Assembly (NCBI GenBank): GCA_024408495.1
Contig: JAKSUY010000002.1
Coordinates: 127 to 64,126, forward strand
Direction of reading: 5' to 3'
Length of the DNA: 64,000 nt
From: Bacilli bacterium
Lineage (GTDB): Bacteria > Bacillota_I > Bacilli_A > RFN20 > CAG-826
Positions 8,919 to 62,698 of this stretch are shown one piece after another (positions within the stretch are counted from its first letter, which is position 1; every line of letters starts with the position of its first letter). The translations under genes were made by a program, and so were the position numbers. The notes under the pieces were generated by a model that had not been told where the DNA came from, searched no databases, and was given only the letters and a program-made list of their open reading frames with translations.

Positions 8919-9116
8919 ACCTTTTCTTAATTTTATATACTAAAATTAACAAACGCAAATGTTATACATTGTAGGCATGCGCTTAATGGCAACAGTCGAT
9001 ATTAAGATAAGGTTACATTATTTACATAATAACAAAGTGAAATTAGTTAAATAAGAATCAAAAAATATTGCTATTTAACCAAAAAATAGTATATTTTAGG
9101 TAAATAGGTGTTAATT

Positions 9117-14360: not shown

Positions 14361-15013
14361 TCTTTAGATAAGTCGGGAACCTTTGCAACAATCAAAAAAT
14401 GCGTTTTTTTCGGCTGACCTTTTTTAATTAACGCTAAGCACGCTTTTAAGGTAGAACCAGTAGTAGAAATATCATCCACAAATAAGACTTTTTTGCTATG
14501 AATTTTCTCTAAATTAGTGATTTCTAGTTTATTAATTACTTTATTTCTTTCATCTTTACTTAAATCGGATTGTTTGTAATTAGTTTTCTTTTTGATAAGA
14601 GATAAAATCGGAAGATTTAATACCTTAAATATTTCAATCACGTGGTTAAATCCTCGTTCTTGATTATCGATTTCGCTACTAGGAGCAGGGATTAGGATAT
14701 AACCTCGATATTTTCTTATTAATTCATCCTTAAAATAGTTTAAGAACGCTTTAGCAAGTTCAATATCTCCGCATCCTTTTAAAGTGTAAATCTTTTCTTT
14801 CATATAATCGGAATACGTAAATAAATATTCGCCACTTATTCCATCTATCTTTTCGCTTTTTCTAATAGGCGAAAGTAAAGAGAGACAATGTTCACATATA
14901 TTAATGTCAGGATGAAGTAATGCATGAAGATTATTAATCTTTATTTCATTAAAACACATTAGACAATATGATTTTTTATCTTGTAAGATAGGTGTTATCA
15001 AGCTTGATGGCAT
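14357..15013 (-). CDS. comFC: ComF family phosphoribosyltransferase-like competence protein
   Basis: N-terminal CxxC...CxxC zinc finger (CLMCF...CEHC), PRTase motif VLFVDDISTTGSTL, and position directly downstream of comFA. Confidence 0.85.
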   Translation of the reverse strand: MPSSLITPILQDKKSYCLMCFNEIKINNLHALLHPDINICEHCLSLLSPIRKSEKIDGISGEYLFTYSDYMKEKIYTLKGCGDIELAKAFLNYFKDELIRKYRGYILIPAPSSEIDNQERGFNHVIEIFKVLNLPILSLIKKKTNYKQSDLSKDERNKVINKLEITNLEKIHSKKVLFVDDISTTGSTLKACLALIKKGQPKKTHFLIVAKVPDLSKE

Positions 15014-16133
15014 GGATGGCCTCCTTCATACTTTTACTTACTTTATTGGCTAAAAAGATGACTTCTCCTGTCGGTGCATCAATCTTTCTTCCTACGCGCC
15101 CTGAAATTTGAATGAGAACTCCGCTATCGTACATACTATTATCTGCGTTATAGATAATGACTTGTACATCGCGAATCGTGACTCCTCTTTCAAGCACAGA
15201 AGTAGTAACTAGGTAATCGTATGTATGTTTTTTAAAATCGGTAATAATTTCTTTACGGTTTAAACATTTTGAATGCACAAAATGACCTTTCTTCACAAAT
15301 ATTTTAAGAATGGAATAGATTTGTTCTGCAAGTGCGATTGTAGGTGCGAATATTAATAATGGTTTTTTATTTCTTCGATATTCTTTAATCTTCTTAATTA
15401 AATACGGAATTTTAAAATAACCAATCCGAATTACGTTAATTGGTTCAGGAAGCGCGTGTCGATGATATCTAGTATGAAGTTCTAAGATTGGTAAATTATT
15501 TTTCTTAAAATCATCTACTATCTCTTTAGGTGGAGTTGCGCTCATTAAGATATATGAACCTCGAAGCGATTTTTTAAATAGATTAATTAATAAACGATTA
15601 TCACGAAAAGGGAATGCATCGATTTCATCTAAAATCAATAAATCAAAATAATTACTGTATCGATACAATTGATGCGTAGTAAGAATAATCATATCGCCCG
15701 TAAGTTCATCCGTATGCCCTCCGTATACGCAAACGCTTCTACGATTAGGAAATGCAGATATAAAGCGTGGAAACAAATCAATCGCCACTTCTCTTCTAGG
15801 AACAGCAAATCCAACATGTAAACCATGAGAAAGAGCATAACTAACGACCCTATACACTAGCTCAGTCTTCCCACTTCCACACACCGCATGCACAAGAGTT
15901 GATTTATTTTCTTTAAAATTCTCTAGTAACTTCGCCGAAATTTTTTCCTGCTCAGATGATAGTGGATAAGTTAGACTTGCGCTAGTGTCTTCATCGTCTA
16001 CTTTGTAGCTATTTACCTCCCTTCCTTGAAACGAGATGCAAAGACGACAATATGTTTCGTTATTTTTCATGCCAAAATAGCGGGGATCACTATTACCGCA
16101 CCTTGGACAAACATAAATCGCATTACTTCCCAT
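14976..16133 (-). CDS. comFA: ComFA-like DEAD/DEAH-box helicase (DNA uptake ATPase)
   Basis: N-terminal zinc finger CPRCGN...CRLC, Walker A CGSGKTE, Walker B LILDEIDAF, motif SATP, and a helicase C domain TSVLERGVT. Confidence 0.85.
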   Translation of the reverse strand: MGSNAIYVCPRCGNSDPRYFGMKNNETYCRLCISFQGREVNSYKVDDEDTSASLTYPLSSEQEKISAKLLENFKENKSTLVHAVCGSGKTELVYRVVSYALSHGLHVGFAVPRREVAIDLFPRFISAFPNRRSVCVYGGHTDELTGDMIILTTHQLYRYSNYFDLLILDEIDAFPFRDNRLLINLFKKSLRGSYILMSATPPKEIVDDFKKNNLPILELHTRYHRHALPEPINVIRIGYFKIPYLIKKIKEYRRNKKPLLIFAPTIALAEQIYSILKIFVKKGHFVHSKCLNRKEIITDFKKHTYDYLVTTSVLERGVTIRDVQVIIYNADNSMYDSGVLIQISGRVGRKIDAPTGEVIFLANKVSKSMKEAIHAIKLDNTYLTR

Positions 16134-16262
16134 ATTATCTAATACGCGAAAAACAGGAAAAATGCCACGCGGAGAGGTGAAATATTTATTTATATAAATA
16201 AATATATTTTTTTCGAGTTTTTCAAAATGTTAACCAAATCACTCCTTTGGTTAACTTTTAAC
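16134..16262 (-). repeat. Terminator-promoter-leader module, copy A (minus orientation), directly upstream of comFA
   Basis: Reverse complement reads AAAAGTTAACCAAAGGAGTGATTTGGTTAACATTTTGAAAAACTCGAAAAAAATATATTTATTTATATAAATAAATATTTCACCTCTCCGCGTGGCATTTTTCCTGTTTTTCGCGTATTA. It aligns with copies at 16694, 38739, 60768 and 62238. Confidence 0.8.
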
Positions 16263-16306
16263 AAAAAAGTCTTGTAATAATGCAATCGCAGCAGACAAAC
16301 CTTTAC

Positions 16307-16693: not shown

Positions 16694-16830
16694 AATAGTC
16701 CTCCTAATTATAGTTATTAGCGAAAACAAACTAAAATGACCCGCGGAAGCCTAAAATATTTATATATATAAATATATTTTTTTCGGACTTTTCAAAATGT
16801 TAACCAAATCACTCCTTTAGTTAACTTTTT
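16694..16830 (-). repeat. Terminator-promoter-leader module, copy B (minus orientation)
   Basis: Hairpin GTTAACTAAAGGAGTGATTTGGTTAAC (plus coordinates 16799..16825), a 20-nt AT palindrome at 16756..16775, and the conserved leader CCGCGGGTCATTTTAG. Confidence 0.8.
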
Positions 16831-16893
16831 ATTTATTTATCGTTTTATTTGTAAAATAAAAAGGTCTATAATTCTATCTAGTAGAGGTTAAAC

Positions 16894-19585: not shown

Positions 19586-19808
19586 TTATTATTTGCTGGT
19601 TTAAATTATTGGACCATGTTCAACGTTTTTTGATTTTCTAGAACATTAATAAACAGGTTATATTAAAATGAAATTAGGTATGAAAAAGAAAAAGGTGACT
19701 TTAAAAGATCCAAACGCCAAAGCGATGTGGGGGAGAACTAAATCCGTAACTTTTAAAGACAAAACAAAATACACTAGAAAAGTAAAACACAAAAATAATT
19801 ACAATTAA

Positions 19809-20839: not shown

Positions 20840-21691
20840 TTATAAATATAACTTTTTATAATACATCTTTGCGTAATCAATAATCATATTATTATCAATT
20901 AAAGCCTTAACTTGTTTTTTGGCAACTTTTAGAGCTCTATCGTTACTAAATTTACTCGGAACAAAGCAAAAATAATTGATGGATTTTTCTTTATAAAGGT
21001 AACTAACTACAATCTCTTTAAAATCTTTATTGTTGTTCGGTGCTTTTTTAAATTTGAAAGTAAAATCGTTTAGAACGTAACTTTTTGCCTTAATTTCTTT
21101 ATCATTAATCTTTTCTAGTGCTGCTAAAAATGAAGTATTCTCCGCGTTTAATTCTGAGGTAATTCTATTTCTTCTTTTTATAAGGTCTATCTTATAAGCT
21201 TCAACTTGGCGTTGTTGGTCTTCCTTAGCTTGGATTAGTTTGGCTTCCGCTTCTTTTTTAAGCGCAATTTCCCTTTCTTTTTCTTGAATACGCTTAGCCT
21301 TTTCTTCTTTCTTAAGCGCAAGTTTCTTTTCTTTTTCTTGAATACGTTTGGCTTCCTCTTCTTTCTTTAAAGCCGCAAGTTTTTCTTTTTGCGCTAATTT
21401 AGCTACAATTTTTCTTTCTCTTTCGATTTCTTTAGTTTGTCTGTTTTTTTCAGCTTCTAACTTTTTTTGATCCTGTTTAGCTTTTGAATAAGCTAAATTT
21501 TCCGCTTTCATAATTTCTTTATTTCGCTGTTCCAACAAAAATTCGGTTTTTTTATCTTGTTTAGCTTTATCCTTTATAGCTTTATGCACTAAAGCATCTT
21601 GCTTTTTTTTGGCTTTCACCACTTTTTTTTCTTTAGCGTTTTTAATCTTAATTGATTTCTTATTTTCTTTCATATCAAGTATTATATACAA
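20840..21691 (-). CDS. Lys/Glu-rich repeat protein, hypothetical
   Basis: 283-aa ORF containing 18-aa tandem repeats AKRIQEKEKKLALKKEEK. It sits between prmC and tsaC in the same operon. Confidence 0.6.
   Translation of the reverse strand: MYIILDMKENKKSIKIKNAKEKKVVKAKKKQDALVHKAIKDKAKQDKKTEFLLEQRNKEIMKAENLAYSKAKQDQKKLEAEKNRQTKEIERERKIVAKLAQKEKLAALKKEEEAKRIQEKEKKLALKKEEKAKRIQEKEREIALKKEAEAKLIQAKEDQQRQVEAYKIDLIKRRNRITSELNAENTSFLAALEKINDKEIKAKSYVLNDFTFKFKKAPNNNKDFKEIVVSYLYKEKSINYFCFVPSKFSNDRALKVAKKQVKALIDNNMIIDYAKMYYKKLYL
21247..21400 (-). repeat. About 54-nt tandem coding repeat (about 2.7 units) inside the K/E-rich gene
   Basis: CTTCTTT(T/C)TTAAGCGCAA(T/G)TT...TTTTTCTTGAATACG(C/T)TT(A/G)GC repeated head-to-tail. 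Confidence 0.7.
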
Positions 21692-23761: not shown

Positions 23762-24145
23762 ATGACATTTTTAGATTTATTAGCATTTAAGCACTTGAGC
23801 ATTACCGACTTATCAAAAAAAAGTGGGGTAGCGAATTCTACTGTTAACGACATCGCACATGGTCGTTACGATTTGATCGATTGTAGTGGAAGAATTCTTC
23901 AGGCATTTGCTACTGCACTAAAAATAAAGATTGAGGACTTATTAGCGCTAGAGAAAGAAGAGGCTACTACTCTTCTACCATCTTTTTTAAATGACTCCAT
24001 AACAAAATATCGAAAAGCTATAAAAAACGAAGATTTTTCTGCTGACTGCTATAGCATAGAATTAAATAGTTCTATTAATGTTGCCGAAGTAGAAAATCTG
24101 ATTAGTAAAGAAACCGCTAATCGTTTAAGAAGGAGGTATTTCTAA
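23762..24145 (+). CDS. XRE-family helix-turn-helix protein, putative HipB-like antitoxin
   Basis: The N-terminus (LSITDLSKKSGVANSTVNDIAHGR) is a Cro/C1-type HTH. The gene ends 1 nt before the kinase gene. Confidence 0.7.
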   Translation: MTFLDLLAFKHLSITDLSKKSGVANSTVNDIAHGRYDLIDCSGRILQAFATALKIKIEDLLALEKEEATTLLPSFLNDSITKYRKAIKNEDFSADCYSIELNSSINVAEVENLISKETANRLRRRYF

Positions 24146-24146
24146 T

Positions 24147-25031
24147 ATGATTGATTTTACTAATTGCAAACAATTAAAAAAAGCCTATGGTGGAGCTAAT
24201 GGAAATAAGCTATCGATTGTTAGAAACGGTAAAGTATATATGCTTAAATTCCCTGCTTATGCAAAAAGAAATCCAAACATCACATATACCAATAGTTGCG
24301 TTTCGGAATATTTAGGATCTCACATTTTTAATATGCTTGGAGTTAAGGCTCAAAATACAATTTTAGGTAAATATTATTTCAATGGTAAAGAAAAAAACGT
24401 AGTCGCCTGTGAAGATTTCACTTCCGATAATTCTTATACTTTCTTAGATTTTGCCTCGATTAAAAACAAAATCATCGACTCGAATTCTAACGGATATGGA
24501 ACCGAACTTAAAGACGTTCTCCAAGTAATCGAAAGCCAAAACGTTATGGAAAGTAAAATCTTGTTAAACTTTTTTTGGGATATGTTTGTAATTGATGCCT
24601 TTGTGGGCAATTGGGATCGTCATAATGGCAACTGGGGTTTTTTATATGATGGTAAAAAAGATACTATGACCATCGCCCCGGTTTTTGATTTAGGTTCCTC
24701 ATTATTTCCTCAAATCGATGAATCTATCATCGCTACTGTATTAAAATCAAAGGCAGAAATGAACAAAAGAGTTACTGATTTCCCAACATCTGCATTATTG
24801 ATCGATAACAAAAGAATTAATTATTATTCTTTTATCACTGAACATATGAGTAAAGATTGTGATGCAGCAATCAAGCGAATTGCCAAAAGAATTAATATGG
24901 ATGAAATAAACAAACTAATTGATAGTATTGAAATTATTGATAATAACCATAAAGCTTTTCTTAAACAAATATTGAAACTACGAAAAACAATGATTATCGA
25001 TAAGGCTTTAAACGATTTAAAATCCAATTAA
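24147..25031 (+). CDS. HipA-like Ser/Thr kinase, core kinase domain only (putative toxin)
   Basis: Catalytic loop FVGNWDRHNGNWGF matches the HipA_C D-R-H-x-x-N signature. An activation-loop-like FDLGSS is present. It is only 294 aa. Confidence 0.7.
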   Translation: MIDFTNCKQLKKAYGGANGNKLSIVRNGKVYMLKFPAYAKRNPNITYTNSCVSEYLGSHIFNMLGVKAQNTILGKYYFNGKEKNVVACEDFTSDNSYTFLDFASIKNKIIDSNSNGYGTELKDVLQVIESQNVMESKILLNFFWDMFVIDAFVGNWDRHNGNWGFLYDGKKDTMTIAPVFDLGSSLFPQIDESIIATVLKSKAEMNKRVTDFPTSALLIDNKRINYYSFITEHMSKDCDAAIKRIAKRINMDEINKLIDSIEIIDNNHKAFLKQILKLRKTMIIDKALNDLKSN

Positions 25032-33767: not shown

Positions 33768-33830
33768 CCTAATTATTATATAAGAACAAATAAACGATAG
33801 TTTGAATATTTAGTTGCATTGATAATAATG

Positions 33831-33839
33831 TGCTATAAT
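33831..33839 (+). promoter_or_regulatory. Extended -10 promoter (TGcTATAAT) for the antitoxin RNA
   Basis: TGCTATAAT lies about 16 nt upstream of the first repeat unit. Confidence 0.5.
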
Positions 33840-33854
33840 GATTGTGCAATCGAA

Positions 33855-33942
33855 AGGTTGCAACATAAAGGGAATGGGTGAGCCCTACCAAACAGCCTAG
33901 ATTGTAACATAAAGGGAATGGGTGAGCCCTACCAAACAGCCC
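33855..33942 (+). ncRNA. Type III antitoxin RNA (ToxI/antiQ-like): two tandem 44-nt repeats
   Basis: AG(G/A)TTG(C/T)AACATAAAGGGAATGGGTGAGCCCTACCAAACAGCC(T/C) occurs twice head-to-tail (3 mismatches). A promoter precedes it, and a terminator and a ToxN/AbiQ-like ORF follow it. Confidence 0.8.
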
Positions 33943-33953
33943 GATTTTAACAG

Positions 33954-33980
33954 ATATGGTTCCCAAAACCATATTTTTTT
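33954..33980 (+). terminator. Rho-independent terminator between the antitoxin repeats and the toxin ORF
   Basis: ATATGGTT-cccaa-AACCATAT stem-loop followed by a T run (T7). This is the arrangement that sets the antitoxin:toxin ratio in toxIN loci. Confidence 0.8.
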
Positions 33981-33999
33981 ATTGTATAATGGGGTAACT

Positions 34000-34571
34000 A
34001 TGTACAAGATTTATGAAATAAACCCTACCTATATTAAGTATCTAAAGCGGTTTTAAAAGCATGTTTATCTACCAGATGAAGATAGTTCTTTTGGGCGAAA
34101 ATATGTTGGAATAGTATTAGAAATTAATAATTTTAAGTATTTTGCCCCGTTAACTTCTAGCATTTGGAAAAAAAATTAAATGAATCCAATGAATTTATAT
34201 ATGTTTTAGATCAAAATGGATGCAAAAAATTAAAACGAAATTTTACCGATATTATTATCCGTAATAATAACAACCAACCTGTTGCGGCGGTGAAATTAAA
34301 TGATATGGTTCCTATTCCTAACAACCTTATCGGTTTAATTGCGGTTGCTAACATAAAAGAATTACAGCTATCAAGTGAAAGCAAAGATCGTAAATACGGA
34401 TCGTTACTAGAATTAGAACTAGAATATATTAATCGTCCAGCGGTTGCGACAAAAATTAAAGAGAAGGCGTTGGATTATTATTCAAATTATAAAATAAATG
34501 AAAAATACAAAAGAGTTTGCTTAGATTTTAAACTCCTAGAACAAAAGGCGAATGACTATAAAATAAATTAA
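34000..34571 (+). pseudogene. ToxN/AbiQ-family type III toxin endoribonuclease, disrupted
   Basis: MYKIYEINPTYIKYLKRF*KHVYLPDEDSSFGRKYVGIVLEINNFKYFAPLTSS resembles the ToxN/AbiQ N-terminus recalled from memory (MKFY..S.YI.YLK.FD...GIVLEI....Y.APLTS). There is an in-frame TAA at 34054..34056. A 1-nt frame change at the A8 tract 34168..34175 joins to ORF 34164..34571. Confidence 0.8.
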
Positions 34572-38091: not shown

Positions 38092-38738
38092 AGAACCTCC
38101 TTTTTATTTATAAAATAAAAAACTATTAAAACTATACCATAAAATTTAATGAATAACATACATTTATGTTAAATATATCGATTTTCGAATATAATTTAGC
38201 TTTTTTTAGCAAATAATAGAATTATAATGATGAATTTTATTTAGGAATCTAATTGGTAGGGAACTCTCTACTCTTTTTGCTAAATATAAAAAACAACTTA
38301 TACCGAAAAAAGTCTTTTTTTAAAAGTTGAATTTATTTATGTTCTGTATAAGTCGTACGATTATAATTCTGCTATTTCGTAGCAAGTGAATCCAAATGCG
38401 GAACGAGCGAGTCTTTGATCAGCAATGTTTTCTGCATCTGCTTTTGATTTGCCTTCTAATACTTCACGAAAACAGACCCTCTTAGTTTTAAGGCATTCTT
38501 GGTCAAAGTAATATCTGATTTCGTATTGCATAGTGTAAATATAATAAAGCAAAAAAATAAATTATGTAAACTAATTTTTTAAATTGTGCGATTTTTCGGA
38601 CAAAATCACTACAATATTTTTTTATTTTCCGCTTTGCGATGGATAAAAAATGCGTGTAAGCGCGTAAAATAAGAAAGAAATGACTACAAACTGATTTAAG
38701 AATTGTTAATGAGCGGGTGGGTAAACATATTATGTTAT

Positions 38739-38850
38739 GTTAACCAAACGTGGTATTTTATATTTTTTTATATTTATAAAATAAATATATTCTTCTTTTT
38801 AGGAAAATTAATCATCTCTTTTTGTGTATTACTATATAGGAAGACATCTT
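38739..38850 (+). repeat. Terminator-promoter-leader module, copy C (degenerate)
   Basis: GTTAACCAAACGTGG retains only one hairpin arm, and the AT-rich palindrome is degraded. The SD region TATAGGAAGACATCTT-ATG aligns with TATAGGAGGACTATTTTCAATG of copy D. Confidence 0.55.
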
Positions 38851-39144
38851 ATGTATACAAGTGAATTTCATAATGCAGAAGAAACTAAAAAGGTTCTAGA
38901 AAAAGGTGCACCTGGTACCTTGCATAAGTGGTATCAAAAAAAGGAGAAAGGTCCAGCGCATCATACTGGAGATAATACTATGAAAAAGCCTACATTAAGA
39001 CAAAAAATGAATCAGTTAGAAGTATCAATTAATGAATTGACTAAAATAGTTAATGATGGATTTAAGCAAGTTAACAATCGAATTGATCGCATTGAAAATC
39101 GACTTGACTATAACGGACTTAAAAAATTACCTAATAATAGATAA
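38851..39144 (+). CDS. Small coiled-coil protein, paralog family member 2
   Basis: HHTGDNTMKKPTLRQKMNQLEVSINELTKIVNDGFKQVNNRIDRIENRLDYNGLKKLPNNR aligns with the genes at 60910 and 62393. The start is placed at ATG 38851 by homology of the SD region. Confidence 0.7.
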   Translation: MYTSEFHNAEETKKVLEKGAPGTLHKWYQKKEKGPAHHTGDNTMKKPTLRQKMNQLEVSINELTKIVNDGFKQVNNRIDRIENRLDYNGLKKLPNNR

Positions 39145-43190: not shown

Positions 43191-44087
43191 TTATTTAATT
43201 CTTCCTATTAGATAAAACGGAAAAGATACGGATGCACATATCATTGATAACGCTAGTGCGAAACCAAAAATAAATACTCCAATCGCTGCGCTAATAATCC
43301 CACCAGCAATCTTTAATGGAATTAAAACTACCACATCACCATCAAATAGATGCCCAACAAAGTACACAGGAACTTTTACACTTGTAGTAGCAATATCCAC
43401 AAACATTTCGGTAATATATGTATCCGAGAAGATACAATAAACAACGGCTAAAACTAAATAGGCAAATAAAAACGCTAATCCTACCCAGCCACCTGGGCTA
43501 ACCGCTTTACCGAATATAATGCCAAGTACTAAAGTTAAGATAAAGGCAACGACTGCACTAATAATTCCACCAATTAAAGATTTATGGCCTTCAACTCCAG
43601 TGATTTTACTTTTAAATTTGCTAGATGAGACTCCACTTTTGCTTCTAGTTGGATGAATCTTTTCAATTTTTTGATCAAGTTCTAATCCTTTTTGATAACA
43701 ATCATCACAAATGTTAACCTCAACGCGTTCACCATTATCGCGTCTAAATACTTTATGGGTTGTTTCGGTTTCACCAATCTTGCGATGACAATCATGGCAC
43801 GTCATCGCTCCATAATCAACGCTATCTTGTATATCATTAATGACAATATTGGTTACATCGTCACCTTTACTCTCTTTTTTGTTTTCTTCTTTTTGCCCAT
43901 AGATTAAGTCATCGAGTTTACAATCAAAAACTTCAGCCATTTTCTCAAGCATATCGAGATTTGGTTCAACTTCATCTTTCTCGTAACGTGAAATCGCTTG
44001 GGGCGAAATGAATAGACGCTCCGCTAATTGTTTTTGGGTTAGTCCCATCTTCTCACGATAGGCTTTTATGTTGCTTCCAACTTTCAT
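43191..44087 (-). CDS. Membrane-anchored XRE-family transcriptional regulator with zinc ribbon
   Basis: The start at 44087 lies behind GAGGT plus 8 nt. HTH is MGLTQKQLAERLFISPQAISRYEKD. The zinc ribbon is CHDC...CDDC, and there are about four C-terminal TM helices. Confidence 0.75.
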   Translation of the reverse strand: MKVGSNIKAYREKMGLTQKQLAERLFISPQAISRYEKDEVEPNLDMLEKMAEVFDCKLDDLIYGQKEENKKESKGDDVTNIVINDIQDSVDYGAMTCHDCHRKIGETETTHKVFRRDNGERVEVNICDDCYQKGLELDQKIEKIHPTRSKSGVSSSKFKSKITGVEGHKSLIGGIISAVVAFILTLVLGIIFGKAVSPGGWVGLAFLFAYLVLAVVYCIFSDTYITEMFVDIATTSVKVPVYFVGHLFDGDVVVLIPLKIAGGIISAAIGVFIFGFALALSMICASVSFPFYLIGRIK

Positions 44088-44184
44088 TCGTTTTGACCTC
44101 ATGCGTCTATTTAACCGAAATACTTTGTAAAAGTAAATCAACTAAATAGAGAATCGCTCAACAATTTGTAGAATCCTCATGTTA

Positions 44185-48348: not shown

Positions 48349-48731
48349 TTTCTAAATCTCCTTGCTTGAAAAATCTTTAGAAATGAAATACCGCTAATAT
48401 CAAACAAAAGCATTGCTGATGTTTGTAACAATTTTGTTATGCTAATTAAGTTTAACTTGCTTCTCCCGTAGGATTAGTAGGTCTTGTTAATAATCTAACA
48501 ATATTGATTAGAAGTTTTTCACTTCTGGTATTATTTTCTCATAATAAAAAAGAATTGCAATACCTATTTTCAGTATGTACGGTTTTTGGGATTTAAGTTA
48601 TGCTCTTATATTATATTAAAGCCGACTTTATGATATCTAACAATAATTATTTTTTTAACTTAATTAGATAAATAAATGGTATTTATGTACGCAAACAATG
48701 GTTTGATAGTGATATAATTAACTTGCTTGAT

Positions 48732-50903
48732 ATGTCAATAAATTCTCGTTGTCTTTATAATAGTAGCATTGATGAATTTTTAAATGCCGACGAGAAATCT
48801 ATTTTCGGGACTCTTTGTTCGAATTATCACGGTGAAGCCCTTACAACAACCAGAGAAGCCTGGAACAACGAAATAACTATCTTAAAACAAGTTTTAGCCA
48901 GCTTCGCAGGTTTAAACGGACAAATTATTTTTGAATATGATATACCGCGTCTAGGCAAAAGAATTGATGTTGTTGTTTTATTAAAAGGAATTGTATATTG
49001 TCTCGAGTTTAAAGTCGGTGAACATCAAATACACGAAGCCGACATTGATCAAGTATTGGATTATGCGATTGATTTAAAGAATTTTCATAAATTCAGCAAG
49101 GATAGAATTATTGTTCCTATCCTCATTGCGACAAATTACAACAATTCTTCTACCAACATTCAAATGTCGATATATGATGACAGGGTCGTTAACCCTCTAT
49201 TAACTGGAAAAAATGGAATTACTAATTTAATTAGTAATGTAATGAACAAATTTCCCGAAGAAAGTGAAGTTGATTCTAACTGGATTATTAGCCCATACGC
49301 TCCTACTCCAACGATAATCGAAGCCGCCAAAACTTTATACGAAAATCATACTGTTGAAAATATTACACGTCACGAGGCTGATAAAGTTTTTACTGATCGA
49401 ACAATTAATTGCATTATGAATATAATTCAAAAAAGTAAACAAAACCAAGAAAAAAGTATTTGTTTTGTCACCGGAGTTCCAGGAGCTGGAAAGACTCTTG
49501 TAGGATTAGATGTTGCTGTTCGCCAAACTTATCAAAGTAAAAATGAAACAATTAACGATGAGGGTGCGGTTTATTTATCAGGCAACGGTCCGCTTGTCGC
49601 TGTTTTAATTGAAGCTTTAGCTCAAGATAATTACAAAAAATGTAGAGAAAGGGGTGAAAAAAAGAAAATAACCGATTCACGTCGTGAAGTGAGTAAAACT
49701 ATTCAAATGATTCACCGTTATCGCGATAATATGTTGGCAAAAATTAAAAACCCAATTGAAAACAATATCGTAGAAATTGACCCAAAAAAAGCTGTAGATC
49801 AAGAACAATCTGGATATGGTGAAGTTGAACATGTTGCAATTTTTGATGAAGCACAGCGTTCATGGACACACAAAAGACTTGCTGATTATTTAAAGAAAGG
49901 TGGTACATACGGTAATAAATTAAAAGTAAGTGATTTTCCGATGTCTGAACCTTCCTTTTTAATCTGGTCTCTTAATCAGCGCAAAGATTGGGCATGCATT
50001 GTTTGTCTTGTCGGCGGTGGCCAAGAAATTAATACAGGCGAAGCTGGAATTTTAGAGTGGATAAGAGCATTAAATGAAAAATTCACTGATTGGAAAATCT
50101 ATATATCTCCTGAATTGAATGAAGAAGAATACGCTGAGGGAAGAATAAAAGAGATTTTAAAAAATAATATGAATGTTTTTTATGAAAAGGATTTACATCT
50201 TAGCGTGTCATTGCGATCATTTAGAGCTGAAAAATTATCAGCGTTTGTTCATGCATTATTATCTTTTGATGATAACGCCTCAAAAATTTATGACGAGATT
50301 AGGGATAAATATCCTATAGTTTTAACAAGAAATATGGATAAAGCAAGGGCGTGGCTTCATGATCGTGTTAGAGGCAATGAACGAACTGGCGTATTAATCA
50401 CAAAAGAATCTGCAAGGTACAAACCGCTGGCTGTTCACGTTCTGCCTTCTGGCGATGATAATGCAGTCCATTGGTTTTTGGATGATAAAGAAGATAGTAG
50501 GTCTTCAAATTATCTTGAGGACGCGGCCACTGAAATTCAGGTTCAAGGACTAGAACTTGATTATACGTGCTTATTATGGGACGCAGATATGAGATACGAA
50601 AATGGTTCATGGGGATTTTATAACTTTATATACCCAAGAGAAAATCTTAATAGTTCAAACAAAAAATACCCAGAATGGAAAAAATTAGTTCCAAATACCG
50701 AAAATAAACAAGATAAGATGAAATATATGTTGAACGCTTATAGAGTATTACTTACTCGAGCGAGATCCGGCATGGTTATCTGCGTGCCTAATGGTAATTC
50801 TAATAAAACTAAAAACGGTTATTGGGAAGACAACACAAGATTACCAGAATTTTATGATGCGACCTATAGATATTTAAAAAAGATAGGAATTAAAGAAATA
50901 TAA
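48732..50903 (+). CDS. DUF2075-type protein: N-terminal PD-(D/E)xK-like nuclease fold + SF1-like P-loop NTPase
   Basis: Nuclease-like IDVVVLLKGIVYCLEFK, Walker A VTGVPGAGKT, Walker B VAIFDEAQR and C-terminal LLTRARSGMVICV. The start is moved to ATG 48732. Confidence 0.7.
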   Translation: MSINSRCLYNSSIDEFLNADEKSIFGTLCSNYHGEALTTTREAWNNEITILKQVLASFAGLNGQIIFEYDIPRLGKRIDVVVLLKGIVYCLEFKVGEHQIHEADIDQVLDYAIDLKNFHKFSKDRIIVPILIATNYNNSSTNIQMSIYDDRVVNPLLTGKNGITNLISNVMNKFPEESEVDSNWIISPYAPTPTIIEAAKTLYENHTVENITRHEADKVFTDRTINCIMNIIQKSKQNQEKSICFVTGVPGAGKTLVGLDVAVRQTYQSKNETINDEGAVYLSGNGPLVAVLIEALAQDNYKKCRERGEKKKITDSRREVSKTIQMIHRYRDNMLAKIKNPIENNIVEIDPKKAVDQEQSGYGEVEHVAIFDEAQRSWTHKRLADYLKKGGTYGNKLKVSDFPMSEPSFLIWSLNQRKDWACIVCLVGGGQEINTGEAGILEWIRALNEKFTDWKIYISPELNEEEYAEGRIKEILKNNMNVFYEKDLHLSVSLRSFRAEKLSAFVHALLSFDDNASKIYDEIRDKYPIVLTRNMDKARAWLHDRVRGNERTGVLITKESARYKPLAVHVLPSGDDNAVHWFLDDKEDSRSSNYLEDAATEIQVQGLELDYTCLLWDADMRYENGSWGFYNFIYPRENLNSSNKKYPEWKKLVPNTENKQDKMKYMLNAYRVLLTRARSGMVICVPNGNSNKTKNGYWEDNTRLPEFYDATYRYLKKIGIKEI

Positions 50904-50925
50904 CTTATATTTATAGCACAAGATA

Positions 50926-52140
50926 TCATGAATAACTAAAAAGAGAATAAAATTTTTTCAACCAATCGAAAGATTTAGGACAGTTATATTCGCGTACGGC
51001 TTTTTTTAAATCTATGTAGAAACATTTAATAGTTTCATACTTTTTTTGACTAGATTTCCAGCTTGATGTCGCATCGCCATAATAGGAAAATAATTGGTCC
51101 TTCGGCAAAGAAGCCGGGAAAATAAAACAATTGTAAATCTCGTCACGATCGTATAAAAAAGGAGGCGCAGAAAGTCTATCGTGATTGAAATCAATGTTTT
51201 CAGCATAGGTTATCTGCTTTTGTATGCTAGAGATTTCTGGTAAACTCCCTTTGGCATAGCATTTAGAATCAATTACATACACCTTATTGTTGGCGATGTG
51301 AATAGTATCAGGAATTAATTTGTTTTTTAAAGGAGATGCTTTCCCACCAATTAAATAACTCGCGGAAGGCTCATAAATGGTTTTATTAACAACGTTACCA
51401 AGAATACTATCCACTATACTTTCAAAAACCACATCAAAACTTGAAACACCAAACGAGCTGATAACACCATCTTTACCTATTGTTTCGCAAACAATATTTT
51501 TCATGTGAGTCAGTAATAATCGATTGTCATCATTAAAAGTGCTATCGAGTTCTTTTTTTATGCAATTCAAATATTTACTTTTGAGATAGGGGGTAATAAT
51601 TTTCTTTTCCCAAGGGACAGATTTAGGATTCATGCCTTCTAACCAAATTCCTACTTTAGAAACCGCCTCATAGACACAATAATAATAGGCATCGATAATT
51701 AAAGAATTTGAAATGCATTTATTTTCGTAAATAGCATTTTTAAAATACACATCATTTCCAATAATGAAAGTCTCACCATGTAAAGTTCTTTTCCAATTGA
51801 TTCGCCCTGAAGTGTTAACTGAATAGCGCTTTTCATAAGTTAATGGACGACCATAAGTTTTGTAATGGCCAAGAATCCAAACCATTGATGATAGTGGAAA
51901 ATCATTAATGAATTCTCCTTCAACGCCTTCTATCTTTCTTAGTTCAGAACGACGTGTCCTAGCTTTATGTAGAGCCTTTAAAAAGTATTTAATATCAGCA
52001 AAAAAGTTTGGATCATCGTTCGACATAACATAATCATTCGGGACGCTTAATAAAATCTGTCCATTTTTTTCAAAATCGATGCCGACAAAATTTTTAGCCG
52101 GCTTGTGAATTATTTTTATCCTTCCTACAGGGTCAATCAT
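50926..52140 (-). CDS. McrC / LlaJI-R2-like restriction endonuclease subunit
   Basis: 404 aa, overlapping the upstream McrB-like gene by 4 nt. The PD-(D/E)xK-like core is IPDTIHI...VYVIDSKCY. Confidence 0.65.
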   Translation of the reverse strand: MIDPVGRIKIIHKPAKNFVGIDFEKNGQILLSVPNDYVMSNDDPNFFADIKYFLKALHKARTRRSELRKIEGVEGEFINDFPLSSMVWILGHYKTYGRPLTYEKRYSVNTSGRINWKRTLHGETFIIGNDVYFKNAIYENKCISNSLIIDAYYYCVYEAVSKVGIWLEGMNPKSVPWEKKIITPYLKSKYLNCIKKELDSTFNDDNRLLLTHMKNIVCETIGKDGVISSFGVSSFDVVFESIVDSILGNVVNKTIYEPSASYLIGGKASPLKNKLIPDTIHIANNKVYVIDSKCYAKGSLPEISSIQKQITYAENIDFNHDRLSAPPFLYDRDEIYNCFIFPASLPKDQLFSYYGDATSSWKSSQKKYETIKCFYIDLKKAVREYNCPKSFDWLKKFYSLFSYS

Positions 52141-54119
52141 TTGTTATTGCCTTTATGAAATAAACCATTGCGAAAAATTAAACCATCTCCATCTGTATAT
52201 TTCTTTAAGATTTTATCAAACGATTCATCTTCAAATTGGAATAATTGCGTTCTATCAATATTTTTCCCGACATCATTCCAAAGATACTCCAATACTTTAT
52301 TAGCAAAGAGGAATGGATCACCGTTGATTTCTCTTTTTTTGGCGAACCAATATCCAATTTGTCTATCCTCTTCCAATCCGTTAGCGATAATTACACGATT
52401 AACCGCATCTACGAAATCCGCCCAACTAACATTATTCGTCTTGGGGACAATGAAATCGTGTTCAGGCTTTCTAATAACATCCTCTGATTCTTCATTAGTT
52501 ACACGAATCATTTGCCATCTTCTTTTAAATGCAGCATCTAACTTAAACACATTTTGATCAGATGTATTCATAGTAGCGAAAATGAATAAATTATTTGGAA
52601 GTTTAATTTTTTCACTTATATCAATATTTTCTTGTTTAAAGTATTCGGCAATCACGTTATTAAATATACTATACTCGCTAAATCCGTTTTCATCTCTATC
52701 TAGGATTTGAAAAATATCTCCAAAAATAGCCGCAGAATTACCGCGATTTATTTCTTCGATAACCAAAGCGACTTTTCGCAGATTACCAGATTTTGAAGAT
52801 TCAATTGCTAAACGAAGTGCTTTTGTAAAAGGACCTGCTATAACTCGATAGTCTATGCCATCTTTGTTTTTTATAGGCATCAGTTGACCCACAAAATCAG
52901 AATTACTGTAATCAGGATGGAAGGTTGTTCTAATTATGAATTCTTCATCTTCCTTGGATTTTTTAAAATTTCTAGATAATAGGTGAGAATTAAGTTTGTA
53001 AGATTTTCCGCATCCTGGAATTCCATAATAAATGATGTTTGTACCAACTATTTTTTCTTCGCCAAAATCACTGTTGTTCTCATCATCTTCGTTTTCTAAA
53101 GGTTCCGTAATGCTCAAATCATCAATTTCTACTTTATTGACACTTTTATACGGCAAATCGAGCCCAAGTCTCCAAGAAAACCTACCAATAATTGCAGATA
53201 GCTCGAAATTTTTCATTGTGCTATTTCTAGTGAATTTATTGACTTCCTTGCAACACTCAAAATAATCTAATTTATAATCTTTAACTTGTAAAAATTTAAA
53301 TGTTATATCGATAAAATCATCTCCGATACAATCATAGAAAACGTTTGGATATATAAGAAATAAATATTTTTTAAACCATTTACGAATTTTGCTAAAACCA
53401 ACTTCTTTACAGTTCTTGTTTATCAATTTGACAATATCATCAAAAGAAGAAACTTCGTCTAACTTAGCAAATTGTCTAGGGGTAAAGTTAATTTGTTTAG
53501 ATTCAATAAAATTGAAAATGTCAATGAATGCTGTTCTTATTTCTTTAGCTTTTTTGATCGCGTCATCTTCAGAGATCTCCTTTTTTTCAAACCACCAAGC
53601 AGTTTTATTTTCCTTTTCCTTTCTGCAATAAGCAAAACCCTTGTTGACGCAACTTCCATCTCTGGCCTTTGGGCCGAAATTCGATGCTTCCATTTCCATA
53701 ATCAAACTTTTAAAGGTTTCGTTTACGCGACGACCGGCGTTAAAAAATTTATTTAAGAATTCTTCATCAGACATTTTATCAATTGCATTTTTTCCAAATA
53801 AATCGTTAAAAGAAGTGATGTACATTTTTCTGCCATCTAGTTCGTGCGAAAAACGTATTTCATCAATAATACTGTTTAAATCACAATTTGATTTGTTAGT
53901 GTTTAACTTATTAAGATTATTAAGATAATTTTTAAATAATTTAATTATGCTGTTGCAATTCTCTTCTTGTTGTTTATACACTTTTAATTTAGTAATTTCG
54001 CTCGGTATATTTTTTGCGTTTGTTGCAACGAATATATTAGGGTTCTCTTTTACAATTAATTCGTATAAATTACTATAACCATCTTTTTCGCATAAACGCA
54101 AATAAGTGTAAAAATACAT
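52137..54119 (-). CDS. McrB-like AAA+ GTPase restriction subunit with an unrecognised ~350-aa N-terminal domain
   Basis: Walker A YGIPGCGKS, Walker B/McrB signature LVIEEINRGN, FIFATMNTSDQ and AAFKRRW. Confidence 0.75.
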   Translation of the reverse strand: MYFYTYLRLCEKDGYSNLYELIVKENPNIFVATNAKNIPSEITKLKVYKQQEENCNSIIKLFKNYLNNLNKLNTNKSNCDLNSIIDEIRFSHELDGRKMYITSFNDLFGKNAIDKMSDEEFLNKFFNAGRRVNETFKSLIMEMEASNFGPKARDGSCVNKGFAYCRKEKENKTAWWFEKKEISEDDAIKKAKEIRTAFIDIFNFIESKQINFTPRQFAKLDEVSSFDDIVKLINKNCKEVGFSKIRKWFKKYLFLIYPNVFYDCIGDDFIDITFKFLQVKDYKLDYFECCKEVNKFTRNSTMKNFELSAIIGRFSWRLGLDLPYKSVNKVEIDDLSITEPLENEDDENNSDFGEEKIVGTNIIYYGIPGCGKSYKLNSHLLSRNFKKSKEDEEFIIRTTFHPDYSNSDFVGQLMPIKNKDGIDYRVIAGPFTKALRLAIESSKSGNLRKVALVIEEINRGNSAAIFGDIFQILDRDENGFSEYSIFNNVIAEYFKQENIDISEKIKLPNNLFIFATMNTSDQNVFKLDAAFKRRWQMIRVTNEESEDVIRKPEHDFIVPKTNNVSWADFVDAVNRVIIANGLEEDRQIGYWFAKKREINGDPFLFANKVLEYLWNDVGKNIDRTQLFQFEDESFDKILKKYTDGDGLIFRNGLFHKGNNK

Positions 54120-60013: not shown

Positions 60014-60322
60014 ATGAATGATAGCCGTTGGAATCGATTAGCTACTGCAATCTTACTTCAAGCCGTTAGAGATTGGAGAGGACACGCTAAAGAATTAAAG
60101 AATATTAAGAAACGTGATATTGCGATGAGAGAACTTAAAAGCATTATTGATTTTATTAATAGTGAGTGGTTCTTATATCTCACAAATGGAGATCGAGCGC
60201 AATTAGATTATTGTAAGCGTCTAATCCAAGATATTGAAAACAAGAAAGATCAAAAAGAATTAACTGCTTATATGAATAATAGCCATCAAAGATTTATTGG
60301 AGGATTAAAGTATGGACATTAA
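60014..60322 (+). CDS. Hypothetical small protein
   Basis: 102-aa ORF, divergent from addB, overlapping the next ORF by 11 nt. Confidence 0.5.
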   Translation: MNDSRWNRLATAILLQAVRDWRGHAKELKNIKKRDIAMRELKSIIDFINSEWFLYLTNGDRAQLDYCKRLIQDIENKKDQKELTAYMNNSHQRFIGGLKYGH

Positions 60323-60767
60323 AGAAGTGTATGATTTATTAGTGAAACAATGGGATAAGATTGAATTCCGTTATCACGAAAACCCTAAAGAACATGAATA
60401 TTCTTATATTATGTCTTACTTTCAACACAAAAAGACTAATATCGGATTCTATGTAAGAACAAAATTAATTAGCGATAATCTTCTTTTAGATTTTAGCTTT
60501 GGAAAAATTAATAATTATAACCAAGCGATTTATTACGTTAATGAATTTAACAAGAATACCGCTTCTTGTTATAAAGCATATATCAACGATAATAAGGATG
60601 GAGATTATTTCCATATTACTTACGCAATTGGAGTCAATAGTCTAAGCGATGTGGATTTTCGCTTTAACCAAGCGCTTGAAGAAATAGTTAAAAAACCACT
60701 CTATCAATATATTAGCCCGTTATGTGCAATGCTAGAAAATGAAGAGCAATTTAAAACGATGGCTTAA
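60312..60767 (+). CDS. Hypothetical protein
   Basis: 151-aa ORF, translationally coupled to 60014..60322 and terminated by the hairpin of module D. Confidence 0.5.
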   Translation: MDIKEVYDLLVKQWDKIEFRYHENPKEHEYSYIMSYFQHKKTNIGFYVRTKLISDNLLLDFSFGKINNYNQAIYYVNEFNKNTASCYKAYINDNKDGDYFHITYAIGVNSLSDVDFRFNQALEEIVKKPLYQYISPLCAMLENEEQFKTMA

Positions 60768-60909
60768 AAAAGTTAACCAAAGGCGTGGTTTAGTTAACTT
60801 TTAGAAAAGTTCGAAAAAATTATATTTATTTATATAAATAAATATTACTAGTCTCCGTGAGTCATTTTAGCCTGTTTCTGCGTATTAATATATAGGAGGA
60901 CTATTTTCA
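60768..60909 (+). repeat. Terminator-promoter-leader module, copy D
   Basis: Hairpin GTTAACCAAAGGCGTGGTTTAGTTAAC (60772..60798) plus TTTT. A 24-nt AT palindrome lies at 60822..60845. The leader is CTCCGTGAGTCATTTTAGCCTGTTTCTGCGTATTA, followed by an AGGAGG SD. Confidence 0.8.
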
Positions 60910-61260
60910 ATGTCAAAACCTAATCAATTAATCGATGCAGTTAAAACTGCAACTGATATCCATAATGGAGATTATTCTTCTTTACGTGGAAAATATCTTG
61001 TAATCCGTGGTAAGATAAAAAAGACGAGAGACCATCATCCTGGAGATAATACTGTGAAGAAACCTACATTGAGTCAAAGAATGGATCAGTTAGATGGAAG
61101 AATTGATCGAATAGAAGTGTCAATTACTAAGTTGGCAGAAGAAATGAGAAATGGTTTTAAGCAAGTTAATACGCGGATTGATAATTTAGAAAAAAGGATT
61201 GATGGTATTGACGCTCGTCTTGATTATAACGGCCTTAAGAAATTACCTAAAAGTAGATGA
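60910..61260 (+). CDS. Small coiled-coil protein, paralog family member 3
   Basis: MSKPNQLIDAVKTATDIHNGDYSSLRGK... is near-identical at the N-terminus to the 16693 gene. The C-terminus is RIDNLEKRIDGIDARLDYNGLKKLPKSR. Confidence 0.8.
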   Translation: MSKPNQLIDAVKTATDIHNGDYSSLRGKYLVIRGKIKKTRDHHPGDNTVKKPTLSQRMDQLDGRIDRIEVSITKLAEEMRNGFKQVNTRIDNLEKRIDGIDARLDYNGLKKLPKSR

Positions 61261-61321
61261 CATAATTCAATTCTTTTTTACTTAACAATCCAATATATAT
61301 TTGTTTATAATTAATATAATT

Positions 61322-62206
61322 ATGAACAAAGCTGAATTAATTAATTTAACGAAGTCTCTTCTAAATGAAGTAGATTTAAGTAAAAGAAAAGATGACTTAC
61401 TTTATTTAAAGAAACAATATAAGTATTTTTCAAGTAAGGATGAAGATTCTTTTTATGAACAAGAGCAAACAAAGACCTTTATTGATTTATATAAAGAATT
61501 AGCGAAGAAAGATCCAAAATTAATCCAATCTCCATACGAAGAAAAGAAAGAAATCATCGAATTAGCGAAATCGCTTCTTTTAGAAAATAATATTCAAAAA
61601 GCCTCTAAGGATTTAGATAATTACACTTACGCTTTTAAAAATGCTGGTAAATGCTCTAACGAACAAGATGATGCTTTATGGCAAGAATTTAGAAGCATAA
61701 AAGATGAATTCTATAAAAAGAGAAAGACTTACTACGAAACCTTAAATAAGCAAAACGAAGAAAAGAATAAAGCGAAAGAAAATATTATCGCTAAAGCCAA
61801 AGAACTTTTAGTCATTAAAAACATTAAAGATGCTAATAAGCAAATGGATGAATTAATGGAAGAGTGGAAAAAGATTGGTTATTCCGGAAAAGATAGAAAT
61901 GAAGCCTTATGGGAAGAATTTTTAGCCGTTCGAAAAGAATTCCAACTTAAGAAAAAAGAAAAATACGAAGAATTAACTAAAGTCTTTGAAGAACGCGCAA
62001 AGAAGAAAGAAGAAATGATAGTAGAAATGAAAAAGCTCTTGCTAGATGCATATTTCACCGAAGAAGAAGTTCAAAAGGTCAAAAAGATGCGGCAAGATTT
62101 TAATCGCATTGGTTTTGCGGGAAAAGAAAAAGATGAAGAACTATATCAAAAATTTGACGGAATCATTAAACAATATTTTGATGAAAAGAAGTTCTATACA
62201 ATCTAG
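61322..62206 (+). CDS. DUF349 repeat protein
   Basis: Repeated (D/N)EALW(Q/E)EF...(K/R)(D/K)EF...KK units typical of DUF349. The start is moved to ATG 61322. Confidence 0.7.
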   Translation: MNKAELINLTKSLLNEVDLSKRKDDLLYLKKQYKYFSSKDEDSFYEQEQTKTFIDLYKELAKKDPKLIQSPYEEKKEIIELAKSLLLENNIQKASKDLDNYTYAFKNAGKCSNEQDDALWQEFRSIKDEFYKKRKTYYETLNKQNEEKNKAKENIIAKAKELLVIKNIKDANKQMDELMEEWKKIGYSGKDRNEALWEEFLAVRKEFQLKKKEKYEELTKVFEERAKKKEEMIVEMKKLLLDAYFTEEEVQKVKKMRQDFNRIGFAGKEKDEELYQKFDGIIKQYFDEKKFYTI

Positions 62207-62237
62207 TTCATTACAATAAATCTATTCATTTTTTATT

Positions 62238-62392
62238 AAAAGTTAACCAAAGGAGTGGTTTGGTTAACATTTTCTAAAACTCAAAAAAATATATTTATTT
62301 ATAAATAAATATTATTACCCTCCGTGAGTCATTTTAGCCTCTTTTTGTTAAGTATATAGTAGAGGCATTATTGCTTAAAGGAGACGAATAAG
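62238..62392 (+). repeat. Terminator-promoter-leader module, copy E
   Basis: Hairpin GTTAACCAAAGGAGTGGTTTGGTTAAC (62242..62268), a 22-nt AT palindrome at 62291..62312, and the leader CCTCCGTGAGTCATTTTAGCCTC. Confidence 0.8.
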
Positions 62393-62698
62393 ATGGCGAT
62401 AAATTATAAAGATTTACTTCTAAAAGAAGTCAAGGAATTACTTAAAAAATTACCCCCGAATGTAAGAATAAGGGTGTATTATGATGATATGGGTAAGAAT
62501 AAATACACATTGAATCAGATTGGCGATATGGTTTTATCATTAGGCACTCGTCTTGATAATTTAGAAAAAGATGTTAATTCTTTAAAACAAGATGTAAAAG
62601 ATGTTAATGCTAGAATTGATCGTATCGATACTCGTCTTGATGGTATTGAAGCTCGTCTTGATTATAACGGTCTTAAGAAATTACCTACTAATAGATAA
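62393..62698 (+). CDS. Small coiled-coil protein, paralog family member 4
   Basis: The N-terminus is different, but the C-terminus RLDNLEKDVN...VNARIDRIDTRLDGIEARLDYNGLKKLPTNR is shared with the family. Confidence 0.75.
   Translation: MAINYKDLLLKEVKELLKKLPPNVRIRVYYDDMGKNKYTLNQIGDMVLSLGTRLDNLEKDVNSLKQDVKDVNARIDRIDTRLDGIEARLDYNGLKKLPTNR

Follow-up and report, generated by a model that had tools for sequence, protein, structure and literature searches.

The stretch of DNA analysed here (the window) comprises 64,000 nt from a Bacilli bacterium (GenBank assembly GCA_024408495.1, contig JAKSUY010000002.1, positions 127 to 64,126), and all positions are counted from its first letter. It contains about 48 real genes. 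Five of its roughly 40 intergenic regions are filled by copies of a module of about 130-150 nt that consists of a hairpin, an AT-only inverted repeat, a T-rich leader and a Shine-Dalgarno (SD) site. Four of the five copies lie 5′ of paralogous genes for small coiled-coil proteins, hereafter the family genes, and the fifth lies 5′ of comFA (Table 1).

The module and its genes in the window

We searched the window with nhmmer using a profile built from module copies. There are exactly five full-length matches: 60764-60924 (+), 62233-62397 (+), 16114-16263 (-), 16679-16832 (-) and 38734-38865 (+). A preliminary description of this DNA had reported five copies at these places, and the profile recovers all of them and finds no others in the window. 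The parts of the module are also far more frequent in the window than expected, with four matches to the 27-nt hairpin pattern (0.00 expected), three to the leader block (0.09 expected) and five to the AT inverted repeat ATATTTA-N3-10-TAAATAT (0.17 expected), the last all within modules. The perfect AT-only palindrome noted earlier is borne out, and we can now fix its length at 20-24 nt. Two other details needed correction. The 10-bp hairpin stem is perfect in two of four copies, the hairpin at 16799-16825 having a T.G pair and that at 60772-60798 a C.A mismatch; and a full AGGAGG, which had been ascribed to each intact copy, is found in two of the five, the other copies differing. The hairpin of copy 5 is truncated (GTTAACCAAACGTGGT, then a T run), and the short module subtype to which this copy belongs is also found in the metagenome-assembled genome (MAG) Horse_feces346. 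The neighbouring genes listed in the preliminary description could all be identified, namely those for ComFA/ComFC, PfkA, a truncated methyltransferase, a DUF349 protein and a cation diffusion facilitator (CDF) transporter.

Table 1. Module copies and associated genes in the window
Feature	Position	Strand	Details
Module copy 1	60768..60909	+	hairpin 60772-60798; AT palindrome 60822-60845; SD AGGAGG 60894-60899
Module copy 1, conserved leader	from about 60853	+	CTCCGTGAGTCATTTTAGCCT
Family gene, 116 aa	60910-61260	+	N-terminus type A (MSKPNQLIDAVKTA..); C-terminus type 1 (RLDYNGLKKLPKSR)
Module copy 2	62238..62392	+	hairpin 62242-62268; AT palindrome 62291-62312; leader from about 62320; GGAG 62380-62383
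Family gene, 101 aa	62393-62698	+	N-terminus type B (..LKKLPPNVRIRVYYDD); C-terminus type 1; 21-nt tandem repeat 62616-62662
Module copy 3	16694..16832	-	hairpin 16799-16825; AT palindrome 16756-16775; between divergent genes, pfkA start 16894
Family gene, 128 aa	16307..16693	-	N-terminus type A; C-terminus type 2 (RLDYIVKANNLKDR); 21-nt tandem repeats 16461-16544
Module copy 4	16134..16263	-	hairpin 16229-16255; AT palindrome 16182-16205; abuts comFA start codon at 16133
ComFA-like helicase gene, non-family, behind module copy 4	14976..16133	-	
comFC, downstream of comFA	14357-15013	-	
Module copy 5, short subtype	38734..38850	+	AT inverted repeat 38770-38788; weak SD AGGAAG
Family gene, 97 aa	38851..39144	+	divergent N-terminus; C-terminus type 1 (NRLDYNGLKKLPNNR)

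Pairwise identity between the window copies is 71-79%, which is about equal to their identity with the copies in Horse_feces346. As copies within the window are no closer to each other than to those of another species, the duplications must be old and the copies are not being homogenised.

We find it scarcely credible that the module is a generic repetitive extragenic element or a standard terminator that is independent of the gene downstream. The hairpin with its flanking A and T runs does resemble an ordinary bidirectional terminator, but only five copies occur in 64 kb and about 48 genes, and each has a full promoter-leader part. A module at most intergenic regions, which the preliminary description had named as the sign of such an element, is not what the window contains. 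Moreover, 6 of the 10 modules found through the hairpin in the wider search described below precede family genes, and all 16 family genes examined there have a module. With four of the five window copies placed before family genes, and with no terminal inverted repeats in the alignments, the module also differs from repetitive extragenic palindromic (REP) elements and miniature inverted-repeat transposable elements.

The coiled-coil proteins and their mosaic evolution

All four small open reading frames (ORFs) of 97-128 aa that had been reported behind modules are present, and they can be aligned through an RLDY.N.LK tail. Within this tail R-L-D-Y-N-x-L-K is invariant among the four window proteins and the residues R-L-D-Y-N-L are invariant across the roughly 45 clusters described below. 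Of the C-terminal ending proposed earlier, the shared RLDY tail holds; the protein encoded at 38851 ends in NRLDYNGLKKLPNNR and not in ARLDY... The proteins are net basic and contain no hydrophobic run of at least 10 residues, in agreement with the reported lack of a signal peptide or transmembrane segment.

A word-indexed search of 5.8 billion proteins returned about 20 relatives, all of them encoded either in MAGs of an uncultured 'Bacilli bacterium', recovered from horse faeces and further gut samples, or on metagenome contigs that carry no label. An exhaustive profile search extended this set to about 45 full-length clusters at 50% identity, with members of 62-123 aa, beyond which it retrieved generic heptad-repeat proteins only. 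Pairs of window paralogs have dN/dS values of 0.27-0.76, which indicates that the family genes are coding but fast-evolving. The preliminary description had allowed that the small ORFs might lack conservation in relatives; the clusters and the dN/dS values mark them as real coding genes. As a multigene family it is lineage-specific, restricted to gut MAGs of uncultured 'Bacilli' with a low GC content (about 32%).

The preliminary description did not recognise the family, and neither do the databases. No member reaches a curated cut-off in Pfam or NCBIfam, the N-terminal parts match no known family, and searches against PHROG and PDB profiles and with Foldseek yielded nothing significant. A similarity to influenza HA2 (E of 2e-4) was put down to coiled-coil bias and not taken as a sign of family identity. 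A metagenome search with the pattern R[IL]DxI[DE][AT]RLD, derived from the protein alignment, proved too generic and returned unrelated coiled-coil proteins. The protein family is undescribed, although it is not a new type of system, and it resembles mosaic families known from mycoplasmas.

AlphaFold2 monomer models of one type-A and one type-B member predict that a short helix at the N-terminus is joined by a basic, unstructured linker to a single long helix (residues 54-106 and, in the second member, 40-91; pLDDT above 90), which is followed by a non-helical tail of about 10 residues. The heptads of the long helix read R-I-D-x-L-E-x, with RIDNLE, RIDRIE and RLDGIE repeats that place Ile or Leu at positions a and d. 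The named weak database matches of the family are nearly all coiled-coil proteins (influenza HA2, coronavirus S2 HR1, HSBP1, Lpp, DUF16, phage tail fibre and YadA). Several of these are trimeric, for example HA2, coronavirus S2 HR1, HSBP1 and Lpp. A strict R-h-x-x-h-E motif, as defined for trimerisation (PMC3653964), is present in 34 of 46 members, and the window proteins have one or two strict and up to five relaxed occurrences. Because the heptads repeat this motif, we infer from the sequences that the family proteins form parallel three-stranded coiled coils. In sequence features alone, namely the R-h-x-x-h-E repeats, they are like the short parallel trimeric coiled coils of coronin-1, ccβ, engineered GCN4 and cortexillin. 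The predicted product would thus be a small (about 62-128 aa) basic soluble protein in which one of two interchangeable N-terminal helix-loop types is joined through a lysine-rich linker to a long heptad helix and a non-helical tail, RLDY-(0 or 4 residues)-N-x-L-K, that comes in two types.

The family members are mosaics. Their N-termini are of type A (..LIDAVKTA..IHNGDYSSLRGKSFVI) or type B (..LLKNPPPxVxIxVY..), their C-termini likewise of two types, RLDYNGLKKLP.. and RLDYIVKANNLKD, and all four combinations of N-type and C-type are found, in 7, 9, 14 and 9 members. Two proteins, P0002 and P0016, are identical over their first 37 residues and have different C-termini. Alignment gaps come in units of 7 or 14 residues, and 21-nt tandem repeats are present within two window genes (Table 1); the heptads thus vary through gain and loss of 21-nt units.

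The most clear-cut case comes from the closely related MAGs MJ207 and MJ206, which share a single-copy syntenic ortholog between a ferredoxin gene and rpsI-rplM (loci L003 and L095). The flanking DNA of the two loci is 97-100% identical and the flanking genes have a dN of 0-0.007, and the module upstream of the ortholog is almost unchanged. The first two-thirds of the family gene nevertheless differ with a dS of 0.36 and a dN of 0.17, whereas dS is 0 over its last 32 codons. Such divergence between conserved flanks speaks for the replacement of an internal segment rather than for drift by point mutation. Recombination would thus be the diversifying mechanism. Domain shuffling, the likely trimer and the parallel with a mycoplasma family that is drawn below were all absent from the preliminary description and are added here.

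The same pair of loci differs locally in two other places. Around L003 12000-12600 the start of a gene for a Bmp-family lipoprotein drops to 59-87% identity with L095, with indels, and at L003 9300-9449 the 3′ end of a MuF_C-like gene drops to 85%; both are further hot spots of local divergence.

The module as a probable shared promoter unit

To follow the module beyond the window we scanned for its hairpin in one genome per species. True copies are found in Horse_feces346 (JAKSUZ) and SGB_4354 (JAZLFE), and the other matches are unrelated chance occurrences. Further loci were reached through the family proteins, independently of the DNA pattern, in MJ206, MJ207, MJ208 and a European Nucleotide Archive (ENA) assembly, which gives a set of 20 distinct modules from six genomes. 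All family genes with readable upstream DNA (16 of 16, from the six genomes) carry the module core, which is composed of the AT inverted repeat followed by GTGAG, a T-rich leader and an SD site. The sequence ATATTTA..TAAATAT forms a perfect AT stem of 8-12 bp in every one of the 20 modules. From its right arm it is 10-13 nt to GTGAG or GCGAG (or a CG-containing variant), after which the module continues with a T-run, further T-rich sequence and the ribosome-binding site.

Horse_feces346 has in addition a second repeated element, CTCACCCCGATAAGATCGTCGTGAG, located just upstream of module hairpins (L001 about 9830-9865, L011 about 7590-7630 and L099 about 5840-5880). This element is absent from the window.

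The hairpin copies are flanked by A and T runs on both sides. In a terminator scan the hairpin at 62242-62268 is terminator-like on both strands; the remaining copies have T runs and only three G-C pairs per stem, and folding energies range from −8.5 to −13.5 kcal/mol over all copies. In most instances the gene upstream is co-directional and its stop codon directly precedes the hairpin. This gene is divergent in three others (16830, L001 8424 and L103), and since the hairpin is kept here, where nothing needs terminating, it is apparently inherited as part of the unit.

This inheritance bears on the idea, put forward in the preliminary description, that terminator, promoter, leader and gene are duplicated or mobile as a unit, with the module merely carried along. 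The tight linkage of module and gene on which that idea was based holds in the window and in the wider set alike. There are also tandem module-gene units in L001, the GTTAAC hairpin persists between the divergent genes just listed, a unit that follows rpiB in SGB_4354 is missing from the matching site in the window, and one Horse_feces346 contig carries two identical 90-aa copies. However, the module also stands before five unrelated genes, joined to them at the ribosome-binding site or start codon, and the window copies are no nearer to each other than to those of another species. Hallmarks of mobility are lacking: no terminal inverted repeats were found, and there is no integrase, recombinase or transposase among the annotated window ORFs. 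MJ206 and MJ207, which are more distant relatives, have a single syntenic ortholog. An integron gene cassette is a poor model too, as the units here carry their own promoter-like region and no recombinase domain is found among the annotated window ORFs. We therefore regard a mobile or duplicative cassette as unlikely, although it deserves to be kept in mind.

The rpiB site harbours a small, conserved ORF (about 42 aa, MKKKKVTLKDPNAKAMWGR..), downstream of rpiB at 19680-19808 (+) in the window and at about 6185-6310 (+) in SGB_4354 L020. In SGB_4354 this ORF abuts the module hairpin, which is followed by the family gene; in the window it stands without a module.

The unrelated genes behind modules are comFA, in the window and in SGB_4354 (L013), a gene for an ABC transporter (L102), and ORFs of 160 and 127 aa. 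The last two were considered as disguised family members and rejected, as they are unrelated to the family. Three of the five non-family genes lie directly downstream of a family gene. The module therefore behaves as a type of promoter that lacks a −35 element and is shared between genes; it is not a generic REP element, nor is it a cassette strictly bound to one gene. Because it also stands before a few unrelated genes, it probably marks a set of co-regulated genes. A competence regulon was rejected as the nature of this set, since the comFA-dprA operon of Horse_feces346 has no module and the link to comFA is thus not general.

How the module might work is suggested by its spacing. A sigma-70 scan (TTGACA-16-18-TATAAT, at least 9 of 12 matches) found no promoter inside the modules at 60768-60909 and 62238-62392; neighbouring genes have promoters with 11 of 12 matches. 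Because the distance from TAAATAT to GTGAG is constant, the right arm of the inverted repeat can be read as a −10-like TATnnn and the conserved G as the transcription start. A promoter of this kind, without a −35 element and embedded in a palindrome, is the usual mark of a regulated promoter. In the mechanism that we propose, the bidirectional, intrinsic-terminator-like hairpin would insulate the unit. It would be followed by an A-tract and the 8-12 bp AT-only inverted repeat (ATATTTA..TAAATAT), whose right arm would supply the −10-like element. Transcription would start at the conserved GTGAG or GCGAG 10-13 nt past that arm and run through a T-rich 5′ untranslated region (UTR) of 45-65 nt, lacking a conserved fold, to an SD site that is strong in most copies. 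Each family gene would then be its own transcription unit behind its module. On these sequence grounds the module appears to be a lineage-specific kind of insulated promoter together with its 5′ UTR, and control is probably exerted at the palindrome.

A more specific proposal is that a dimeric repressor sits on the core promoter, using as its operator the AT inverted repeat (8-3-8 in the typical case), with the GTTAAC palindrome as a possible second site for an activator or a BirA-like repressor, such that the family genes, comFA, the ABC transporter gene and others are switched on together. The 8-3-8 geometry is shared by 10 of the 20 modules, and, with a single module as the exception, the eighth, innermost stem pair is complementary, either T-A or C-G. 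The core of the promoter, which has no −35 element, coincides with the palindrome, and unrelated genes share the module. The hairpin arms also contain a core, GTTAACC-N12/13-GGTTAAC, that resembles the BirA operator TTGTAAACC-N14/15-GGTTTACAA with its core GT(A/T)AACC...GGTT(A/T)AC (PMC545781), and two GTTAAC palindromes lie about 20-21 bp apart.

Other features argue against such an operator. The centre of the palindrome varies from 3 to 10 nt, and from 5 to 10 nt in the window genome, which disfavours a rigid dimeric binder and leaves a structural role (hairpin or cruciform) or none. Symmetric changes could also arise without selection, through template-switch correction of quasi-palindromes. 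The resemblance to the BirA operator is imperfect in spacer length (12-13 instead of 14-15 nt) and in the outer flanks, which are reversed (AA..TT for TT..AA); furthermore, BirA sites normally number one or two per genome beside bio genes, whereas the module is present in many copies per genome with no biotin genes adjacent. In four of five variants with a single-sided hairpin change a U.G pair is kept in the sense RNA, which fits an RNA hairpin better than a protein-binding site. No candidate regulator adjoins any module, and the window yielded no sigma factor. One possible regulator, the HTH_3 protein encoded at 43191-44141, was set aside, being a membrane-anchored Xre-type protein and not Rgg-like. 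A regulon under such a dimeric repressor is thus doubtful.

It is also quite improbable that the leader acts as a cis-regulatory RNA, either as a riboswitch or thermometer hiding the ribosome-binding site or by encoding a small RNA or leader peptide. Several leaders do contain CTCC or GCCTCC blocks complementary to the GGAGG site, and several have a short GTG-initiated ORF. However, Rfam gives no match at gathering score in the whole window and no relevant one at E<=1 over the modules, RNAalifold finds no consensus pairs in the leader, and fold energies are no better than those of shuffled sequences (z +0.65 to −1.7). Sequestration of the SD site by the CTCC block was rejected, as the pairing probability is not above that of shuffled leaders (four modules, z 0.4-0.9). 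So was the mini-ORF, which is not conserved in the copy at 16830 or in either SGB_4354 copy, where its start codon is missing.

On balance we lean, by a narrow measure, towards a lineage-specific mosaic coiled-coil family of which each gene lies behind an insulated, palindromic promoter module without a −35 element, a module that also serves a few unrelated genes. The variable palindrome centre and the lack of a candidate regulator weigh against this reading, and so do several other points. The GTTAAC hairpin, present in 12 of the 20 modules, is conserved partly by construction, as 10 of the 20 were found with a pattern that requires its stem; most of the other modules have a different hairpin and a T-run at the equivalent place, and a few lack a hairpin. 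Only the −10-like TATnnn at the right arm is conserved, the hexamers are weak, and the putative −10 element and start site are placed by conserved spacing only. The non-family genes could be leftovers of family-gene deletion instead of members of a regulon. Finally, R-h-x-x-h-E motifs are found in some dimers as well (PMC3653964), and the trimeric state is likewise read from sequence.

Relation to known systems and other features of the window

Among described systems the nearest is the RepMP1/DUF16 family of Mycoplasma pneumoniae (PF01519). Its numerous paralogs combine a proximal part that can be exchanged with a distal coiled coil built of heptads, the number of 21-nt repeats varies, recombination shuffles domains, and short repeats are confined to adjacent intergenic DNA (PMC3472980). 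The family described here shares with it small-protein paralogs without signal peptides in a low-GC lineage, the 21-nt tandem-repeat variation in a distal heptad coiled coil, and the exchange of proximal and distal domains between paralogs, as seen in the four N- and C-type combinations, in P0002/P0016 and in L003/L095. Short repeats occur only in intergenic DNA beside family genes in both. It nevertheless shows no significant sequence relationship to DUF16, for which the best window protein scores 20.2 bits against a gathering cut-off of 40, with only 5 of 46 members at E<0.01. The proteins here are also shorter and all end in an RLDY-N-LK tail, which the description of DUF16 does not include; the repeat beside the genes is an entire terminator-promoter-leader unit that other genes use too; and the host is an uncultured gut lineage with the standard genetic code. 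By analogy, our best guess is that the proteins act in the cell as structural components or adaptors, as suspected for the M. pneumoniae DUF16 proteins.

Other resemblances are more distant. The haemolysin XhlA (PF10779) gives weak matches over the heptad region in 10 of 46 members, which score at most 23.6 bits against a cut-off of 34.7 and, unlike XhlA, come with no membrane segment and no prophage context. HSBP1 (PF06825) matches weakly in 11 of 46 members; the protein encoded at 60910-61260 scores 25.4 bits against a cut-off of 28.6, over 24 profile positions. The vsp, vlp and vsa families of mycoplasmas have a conserved upstream region and mosaic, repeat-rich coding parts; their products are variable surface lipoproteins bearing signal peptides, and they switch through site-specific inversion or slippage in promoter tracts. 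The present family is like these in having a conserved upstream block over mosaic, repeat-rich paralogs, and differs in that no signal peptide or lipobox is present and no invertible element or homopolymer switch was found.

In the reading that we favour, the family grew by duplication of the whole module-gene unit and diversifies by recombination between paralogs together with gain and loss of 21-nt heptad units, with the conserved 5′ module and the conserved C-terminal coding end at the 3′ side probably serving as homology arms. A broader hypothesis goes further. The whole could be a recombination-driven diversification system for intracellular trimeric coiled-coil proteins, with the module and the RLDY-coding end as arms and with the AT palindrome turning on the set at the same time as the DNA-uptake gene comFA and some further genes. 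This is a tentative extension that we think unlikely to hold in full. If true, a new regulon would have come to light in this uncultured, mycoplasma-like gut lineage along with a new protein family, and the case would parallel RepMP1/DUF16 independently and might help to explain the purpose of such families.

The signature GFKQVN.RID...RLDY-N-LK and the upstream DNA signal could both serve to annotate MAGs of the uncultured gut lineage. The family provides, beside M. pneumoniae DUF16, a second, independent mosaic family of coiled-coil paralogs with dedicated flanking repeats. Its clean shared promoter offers a handle on such families, namely the condition or regulator that fires the module, and the −35-less palindromic promoter shared with comFA and the ABC transporter gene is a candidate regulon signal.

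The window contains further features of note. Directly 5′ of module copy 1, two overlapping ORFs of 102 and 151 aa (60014-60767, +) have no Pfam or NCBIfam match. A 54-nt tandem repeat of about 2.5-2.8 copies (21221-21390) lies inside a 283-aa ORF (20840-21691, -) that has no Pfam match. A Fic protein is encoded at 9108-10163 and a HipA-like kinase with a helix-turn-helix (HTH) partner at 23762-25031. A defence-type gene cluster at 48723-54119 encodes a Schlafen-group-3-like helicase (48723-50903), a LlaJI-type restriction endonuclease (50926-52140) and an AAA_5 (McrB-like) ATPase (52137-54119). Lastly, a type III toxin-antitoxin locus occupies 33814-34571 (+). Behind its canonical promoter (TTGCAT-17-TATAAT) come two 44-nt repeats in tandem that are 95% identical (33855-33897 and 33899-33941), a strong terminator hairpin at about 33956-33985 and an ORF (34164-34571) that matches the Pfam family ToxN_toxin with an E of 6e-16. 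The 44-nt repeats have no Rfam match and are most likely a ToxI-like antitoxin RNA.

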